Assembly (NCBI RefSeq): GCF_041886205.1
Contig: NZ_CP169029.1
DNA: 64,000 nt
DNA from: Escherichia coli
Lineage (GTDB): Bacteria > Pseudomonadota > Gammaproteobacteria > Enterobacterales > Enterobacteriaceae
Reading direction: 5' to 3' (one strand)
Every line of letters starts with the position of its first letter. Within the stretch, counting starts at the first letter, position 1. The notes beneath the pieces are model-generated. The model was not told the DNA's origin and did no database searches. It worked only from the letters and a program-made list of their open reading frames with translations. Position numbers and translations under genes: made by a program. Below, one piece after another: positions 2,499 to 2,514 of this stretch.

Positions 2499-2514
2499 AC
2501 GCAAACGTTTTCCG
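2499..2514. promoter_or_regulatory. PurR operator (PUR box) in pyrD upstream region
   Basis: acgcaaacgttttccg matches palindromic PurR consensus ACGCAAACGTTTTCNT; located about 90 bp upstream of pyrD ATG. Confidence 0.55.

Follow-up and report, generated by a model that had tools for sequence, protein, structure and literature searches.

The 16 nucleotides at positions 2499–2514 of the 64,000-nucleotide Escherichia coli stretch that was analysed (the window) are a PurR operator (PUR box) upstream of pyrD, a real and already known element that was first reported in 1990 and recovered by ChIP-chip in 2011. We put the probability that PurR, the purine repressor of the LacI family, represses pyrD by way of this operator at about 0.95. 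The operator and the gene are located as follows:

2499..2514, minus strand: PurR operator (PUR box) of pyrD, centre at 2506.5, based on sequence, weight-matrix score, identity to the ChIP-chip motif and conservation
1402..2412, minus strand: pyrD, the regulated gene, coding for the quinone-dependent dihydroorotate dehydrogenase, based on the ORF list and the RefSeq annotation of matching E. coli genomes

The box reads ACGCAAACGTTTTCCG on the plus strand of the window and CGGAAAACGTTTGCGT on the pyrD (minus) strand; direct reading of 2499–2514 bore out both the position and the sequence given in a preliminary description made from the letters alone. CGGAAAACGTTTGCGT matches letter for letter the pyrD motif of a ChIP-chip study that mapped PurR binding in E. 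coli K-12 (PMC3159470), so that PurR occupancy, one of the marks of a PUR box, has been published for a motif identical to the window sequence. That study places the motif at 1,003,889–1,003,904 in older K-12 coordinates; the identical 16-mer lies at 1,004,666–1,004,681 of NC_000913.3, and the published PurR-bound region maps to positions 2386–2785 of the window, which is K-12 MG1655 without difference from the box through the pyrD ATG. Binding at pyrD was seen only with added adenine and the enrichment was low (log2 ratio of 1.01), and pyrD was named an 'experimentally determined' direct target of PurR repression, was also among the genes affected by the purR deletion and was treated as a previously characterised target, with citation of Wilson & Turnbough 1990 and Choi & Zalkin 1990 (PMC3159470). 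According to a review citing the same two papers, PurR repression of pyrC and pyrD is modest and much weaker than at purine genes (PMC6245113); the fold repression of pyrD, its mutational proof and its exact transcription start are given here second-hand, from reviews. In evolved knockout strains, pyrD expression varied with PurR activity, and the same study also recorded Fis as a regulator of pyrD (PMC6143558). Counter-evidence comes from one engineering study, in which a purR pepA argR triple mutant showed no de-repression of pyrD (PMC4491880). A further paper considered as pyrD evidence ('titration of PurR and FNR', PMC3266220) was set aside, as it deals with the upp–purMN region instead. 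The purine-repressor control of pyrD proposed in the preliminary description is thus supported by the exact ChIP-chip motif (PMC3159470), by the modest repression reported (PMC6245113) and by conservation across species (see below), and a report from Yersinia pestis that PurR binds the promoter of pyrD there agrees with it (PMC10673613).

Match strength and conservation of the pyrD box

The box lies within the 110-nt ycbF–pyrD intergenic region and spans 87–102 nt 5′ of the pyrD ATG (2412–2410 on the minus strand), its proximal edge being 87 nt and its centre 94.5 nt from the start codon. Compared with the perfect palindrome ACGCAAACGTTTGCGT, 13 of its 16 positions agree. When up to three mismatches were allowed, one match was found in the 64-kb window against 0.63 expected, and 45 of 100 shuffled sequences contained at least one match; by mismatch count alone, the match of the box to the palindrome is not significant. 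In place of mismatch counting, a weight matrix was therefore derived from the 27 PurR sites other than pyrD in Table 1 of Cho et al. 2011 (PMC3159470). With this matrix the pyrD box scored 21.2 bits, compared with 13.85 bits for the runner-up in the 64 kb (P = 4.6e-8 per position; by chance, about 0.006 such matches in a window and about 0.43 in a genome), and ranked about 11th among the leave-one-out scores of the 27 known sites, i.e. in the mid-range of experimentally bound sites. All three mismatches fall at weakly conserved, low-information outer positions, and every invariant PurR position (C8, G9, T11 and C14) is present. The box therefore has the properties of a PUR box, namely a 16-bp imperfect palindrome with a central CpG, a score like that of known sites, a place among the control sequences of a nucleotide-metabolism gene, and conservation in orthologous promoters. 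The call made from the sequence alone proved accurate: its distance of 'about 90 bp' agrees with the measured one, the matrix scoring that it had proposed as a check came out in its favour, and its wording 'near-consensus' holds for the informative core, whereas the plain consensus match gains significance only with position weighting.

The second-best matrix match in the window, ACGACCACGATTTCGT at 38901–38916 on the plus strand (13.85 bits), is situated inside overlapping long ORFs. It was rejected as a PurR site, since its score is at chance level (about 0.5% of the 300-nt control windows described below reach 13 bits) and it lies within coding ORFs.

To follow the box across genomes, pyrD loci were collected with a DNA-pattern scan for a conserved stretch of pyrD codons, which gave 120 loci, mostly from Enterobacterales. 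A site of at least 13 bits was present 5′ of pyrD in 87 of the 118 usable upstream regions (74%), compared with 14 of 3034 control windows of 300 nt from the same loci (0.46%). In an alignment of 20 species the core AAACGWTTGC was invariant and the DNA 5′ of the box could not be aligned, indicating that the sequence of the pyrD box is under selective constraint. In one of the loci, from a record labelled Chryseobacterium sp. 18061, the start and promoter of pyrD are of the Enterobacteriaceae type and the PurR box is identical to that of the Pluralibacter locus; the contig is probably mislabelled or a contaminant.

Promoter architecture and probable mode of repression

Downstream of the box, the following elements were found between it and the pyrD start codon:

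2492..2499, minus strand: run of eight T from the PurR box to the FNR site, based on sequence
2480..2493, minus strand: class II FNR activator site TTGCCGCAGGTCAA, 7/10 matches to TTGATnnnnATCAA, centre at 2486.5
2474–2479, minus strand: weak −35 candidate, TTCCCT
2451..2456, minus strand: −10 hexamer CATAAT, based on the alignment, in which the ATAAT core is invariant
2428..2445, minus strand: start-site region (C2445/C2444 and G2442) and 5′ leader hairpin CCCGGTTTGCACACCGGG, based on a review (PMC6524683) and folding
2407..2480, minus strand: Rfam PyrD_leader (RF02373), found with cmscan and comprising promoter, leader, AGGAG (2418–2422) and ATG (2410–2412)

The FNR site is 5 nt downstream of the edge of the PurR box, with the two centres 20 bp apart. 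The T-run bridges them, its first T being position 16 of the box and its last two the start of the FNR site; this run followed by TTG is kept in the 20-species alignment and in the information profile, and it could act as an UP-like element. Myers et al. 2013 reported by ChIP-seq that pyrD is directly activated by FNR through one site at −38.5 (PMC3688515), and from its position the 14-mer TTGCCGCAGGTCAA is presumably the site that they scored. In line with this, the conservation peaks coincide with the FNR-critical TTG and TCAA positions, and in 69 of 86 unique pyrD promoter sequences of enterobacteria a match of at least 7/10 to the FNR consensus was present at one fixed offset. The arrangement is that of a class II FNR-activated promoter, with the FNR centre between −38.5 and −44.5 according to the start site chosen and with occupancy and activation taken from the published work (PMC3688515). 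The TCAATTCC block (TCAWTTCC) was located exactly 28 nt 5′ of ATAAT in 67 of 67 loci. A simple σ70 scan of positions 2380–2660 returned no strong two-hexamer promoter. The weak −35 of this promoter, which depends on FNR, accounts for the result, so it does not count against a promoter at this place.

Further downstream, the CCCCCGG start region followed by the hairpin, as well as the Shine-Dalgarno sequence, form conserved blocks in the alignment. For pyrD, a CTP/GTP-sensitive start-site switch with a leader hairpin has been described (review PMC6524683), and the calculated fold energies of the leader, which were −13.5 kcal/mol for a start at CCCGG, −10.4 at CCGG and −6.3 at GG, fit this published switch. 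The match to the PyrD_leader family was full-length (model positions 1–74) and scored 97.9 bits against a gathering threshold of 47 (E = 9.4e-18), which places the region in this family; two other Rfam matches (RmaA and SNORA57) were weak, far under their thresholds, and were discarded. The features of the locus that may be of use to specialists are the close succession of PurR box, FNR site and start-site-switch leader within 110 nt, the spacing steps between genera, and the two E. coli operator alleles that go with presence or absence of the elf/ycb fimbrial operon (both described below).

With the pyrD transcription start uncertain by about 6 nt, from 2448 (implied by the −38.5 of Myers et al.) to 2442 (the G start), the centre of the box lies at about −58.5 to −64.5, and the box is wholly 5′ of the −35 region. 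The distance from the box centre to ATAAT fell into three classes, 48.5–51.5 (16 loci), 59.5–61.5 (52 loci) and 69.5 (7 loci), with none between, and is 51.5 in the window itself. Correspondingly, the PurR and FNR centres are 19–20 bp apart in Escherichia and Citrobacter, 28–30 bp in most genera and about 38 bp in Rahnella. These steps of about 10 bp suggest a helical-phase constraint on spacing, with the qualification that the 69.5 class does not keep strictly to the helical phase of the other two and that no more than two or three indel events may lie behind all of them.

A PurR dimer with bound hypoxanthine or guanine binds the imperfect 16-bp palindrome and lowers pyrD transcription modestly, and a step of pyrimidine synthesis is thereby tied to purine supply. 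PurR would occupy and bend the DNA just 5′ of the FNR site and the T-tract, the putative docking place of the α-CTD of RNA polymerase, and would leave the −35 and −10 elements uncovered; its control is layered on FNR activation and on the CTP/GTP-sensitive start-site switch with its hairpin. Given that the box is wholly upstream of the core promoter and only 5 nt from the FNR site, action via the α-CTD docking region is the most likely mode, and PurR may work at pyrD as an anti-activator and not as a classical occluding repressor; occupying or bending this region would fit a weak repression.

PurR could also repress by sterically occluding σ70 or FNR at the −35 region, and not by interfering with α-CTD or other upstream contacts. 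PurR footprints reach beyond 16 bp and PurR bends its operator strongly. The short distance of the box edge to the FNR site favours such an occlusion, as does the bend of about 97 degrees that PurR introduces at carAB (PMC6245113). In most genera, however, an additional 9–10 bp or about 19 bp separates the box from the FNR site and the box has nevertheless been conserved, so direct overlap is hard to reconcile with the comparative data, and we consider occlusion unlikely, with roughly the weight of a serious minority option.

The elf/ycb fimbrial insertion and operator alleles in E. coli

The region around the box was matched in 5,425 of 5,426 complete genomes, and a 36-mer across the box in only 4,073 E. 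coli genomes (about 75%). In the other 1,353 (about 25%) the elfADCG–ycbUVF fimbrial operon is absent and pyrD has ssuE as its divergent neighbour. As ssuE is also next to pyrD in Citrobacter, Enterobacter, Klebsiella, Siccibacter, Serratia, Rahnella and Shimwellia, the ssuE arrangement is taken as ancestral, and elfADCG–ycbUVF therefore as an insertion between ssuE and pyrD. The operon ends with the ycbF stop codon (2523–2525), 8 nt from the box, and the homology between genomes with the operon (elf+) and those without it (elf-less) breaks at box positions 1–2. The elf-less allele of the box, AAGAAAACGTTTGCTA, scored 13.8 bits, compared with about 21 for CGGAAAACGTTTGCGT, and is 1 nt nearer to the promoter; the E. 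albertii box is the same as this allele. The box of strain Z1323CEC0015, AAGAAAACGTTTGCGT (AAG...GCGT), was not accepted as typical of elf-less genomes, since this recombinant is a single case and the elf-less box commonly has GCTA as its end. Because elf-less genomes carry a 13.8-bit box, a quarter of the species may have weaker purine control of pyrD or none. The two alleles of the operator amount to an experiment set up by nature, in which the strength that this cross-pathway control requires could be studied. The combined view that PurR is an anti-activator at pyrD and that E. coli is polymorphic for the strength of purine control is put forward tentatively, as a possibility that we hold to be less probable than not.

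Several observations concern the inserted operon and its junction. In the window, ycbF, coding for a fimbrial chaperone, is frameshifted: the run at 3020–3025 has six C here compared with seven in K-12 and in strain LHM10-1, which gives two ORFs (2523–3032 and 2966–3259). LHM10-1 has no further difference from the window between position 2300 and this C run, and the frameshift could be a true pseudogene mutation, slipped-strand variation or a sequencing error. In Pseudocitrobacter faecalis, a ycbF homologue with 58% amino-acid identity ends at the same PurR-box junction as in elf+ E. coli, so that a fimbrial insertion at this exact spot is either common to these genera or was transferred between them. 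For the Escherichia albertii locus, neither ssuE nor ycbF was found within 4 kb 5′ of pyrD; the roughly 40 nt beside its box match elf-less E. coli, and this locus appears to have undergone a different rearrangement at the same junction.

In elf+ strains, the box might chiefly serve as a roadblock against transcription that runs on from ycbF to pyrD. With its stop codon at 2523–2525, ycbF ends close to the box, which begins at 2514, no minus-strand terminator was found between the two, and repression by a PurR roadblock is known at purB (cited in PMC3159470). The box is, however, older than the fimbrial insertion, being present where ssuE is the divergent neighbour and ancestral across Enterobacterales; as it predates the insertion, a roadblock would be at most a secondary consequence, and as its chief role it is very improbable.

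Equally improbable is that another repressor of the LacI/GalR family, e.g. RbsR, is the main binder of the box and PurR a secondary one. RbsR has been reported at some pur promoters. Operators of this family have the AAACGTTT core in common, and the left half-box CGGAAAAC departs from the PurR ideal. Against this, the half that is specific to PurR is the right one, GTTTGCGT, which is strongly conserved, the site was found by ChIP-chip of PurR itself (PMC3159470), and pyrD expression followed PurR activity in the evolved knockout strains (PMC6143558). The reading that the box is a chance resemblance to the PurR consensus with no regulatory role, which the counts of matches with up to three mismatches in the window and in the shuffled sequences would allow, is effectively refuted by the in vivo occupancy of the exact sequence (PMC3159470) and by the conservation of the orthologous site far above the controls, as well as disfavoured by the matrix score, and can hardly be maintained.

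Comparison with known PurR operators

As a PurR operator, the pyrD box is a textbook link from purine supply to pyrimidine synthesis at the dihydroorotate dehydrogenase step, and its confirmation as such adds nothing new. The E. coli K-12 pyrD operator (Wilson & Turnbough 1990; Cho et al. 2011) is the same element as the one in the window, with operator and promoter without difference; the two sequences differ only further upstream, e.g. by the 1-nt deletion in ycbF of the window. The pyrC operator (Choi & Zalkin 1990) resembles that of pyrD in being a PUR box at a pyrimidine gene with a CTP/GTP-dependent start-site switch and modest repression (PMC6245113, PMC6524683). Unlike pyrD, pyrC is a separate locus outside the window and was missed by the ChIP-chip study that recovered pyrD (PMC3159470). 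The PUR box of carAB P1 is likewise an upstream PurR site with weak repression, which is three- to four-fold, and its position has been described as unusual for the regulon (PMC6245113); in contrast to pyrD, its centre is at −128.5 (compared with about −58 to −65) and it is part of a multi-protein complex with PepA, IHF and RutR. The operators of purF, purT, purHD and other pur genes belong to the same 16-bp palindrome family, in which the pyrD box has a mid-range score. Many operators of the pur regulon lie between −35 and −10 (14 of 32, PMC3159470), whereas the pyrD box is wholly 5′ of −35, and purine-dependent repression is much stronger at the purine genes than at pyrC and pyrD (PMC6245113).
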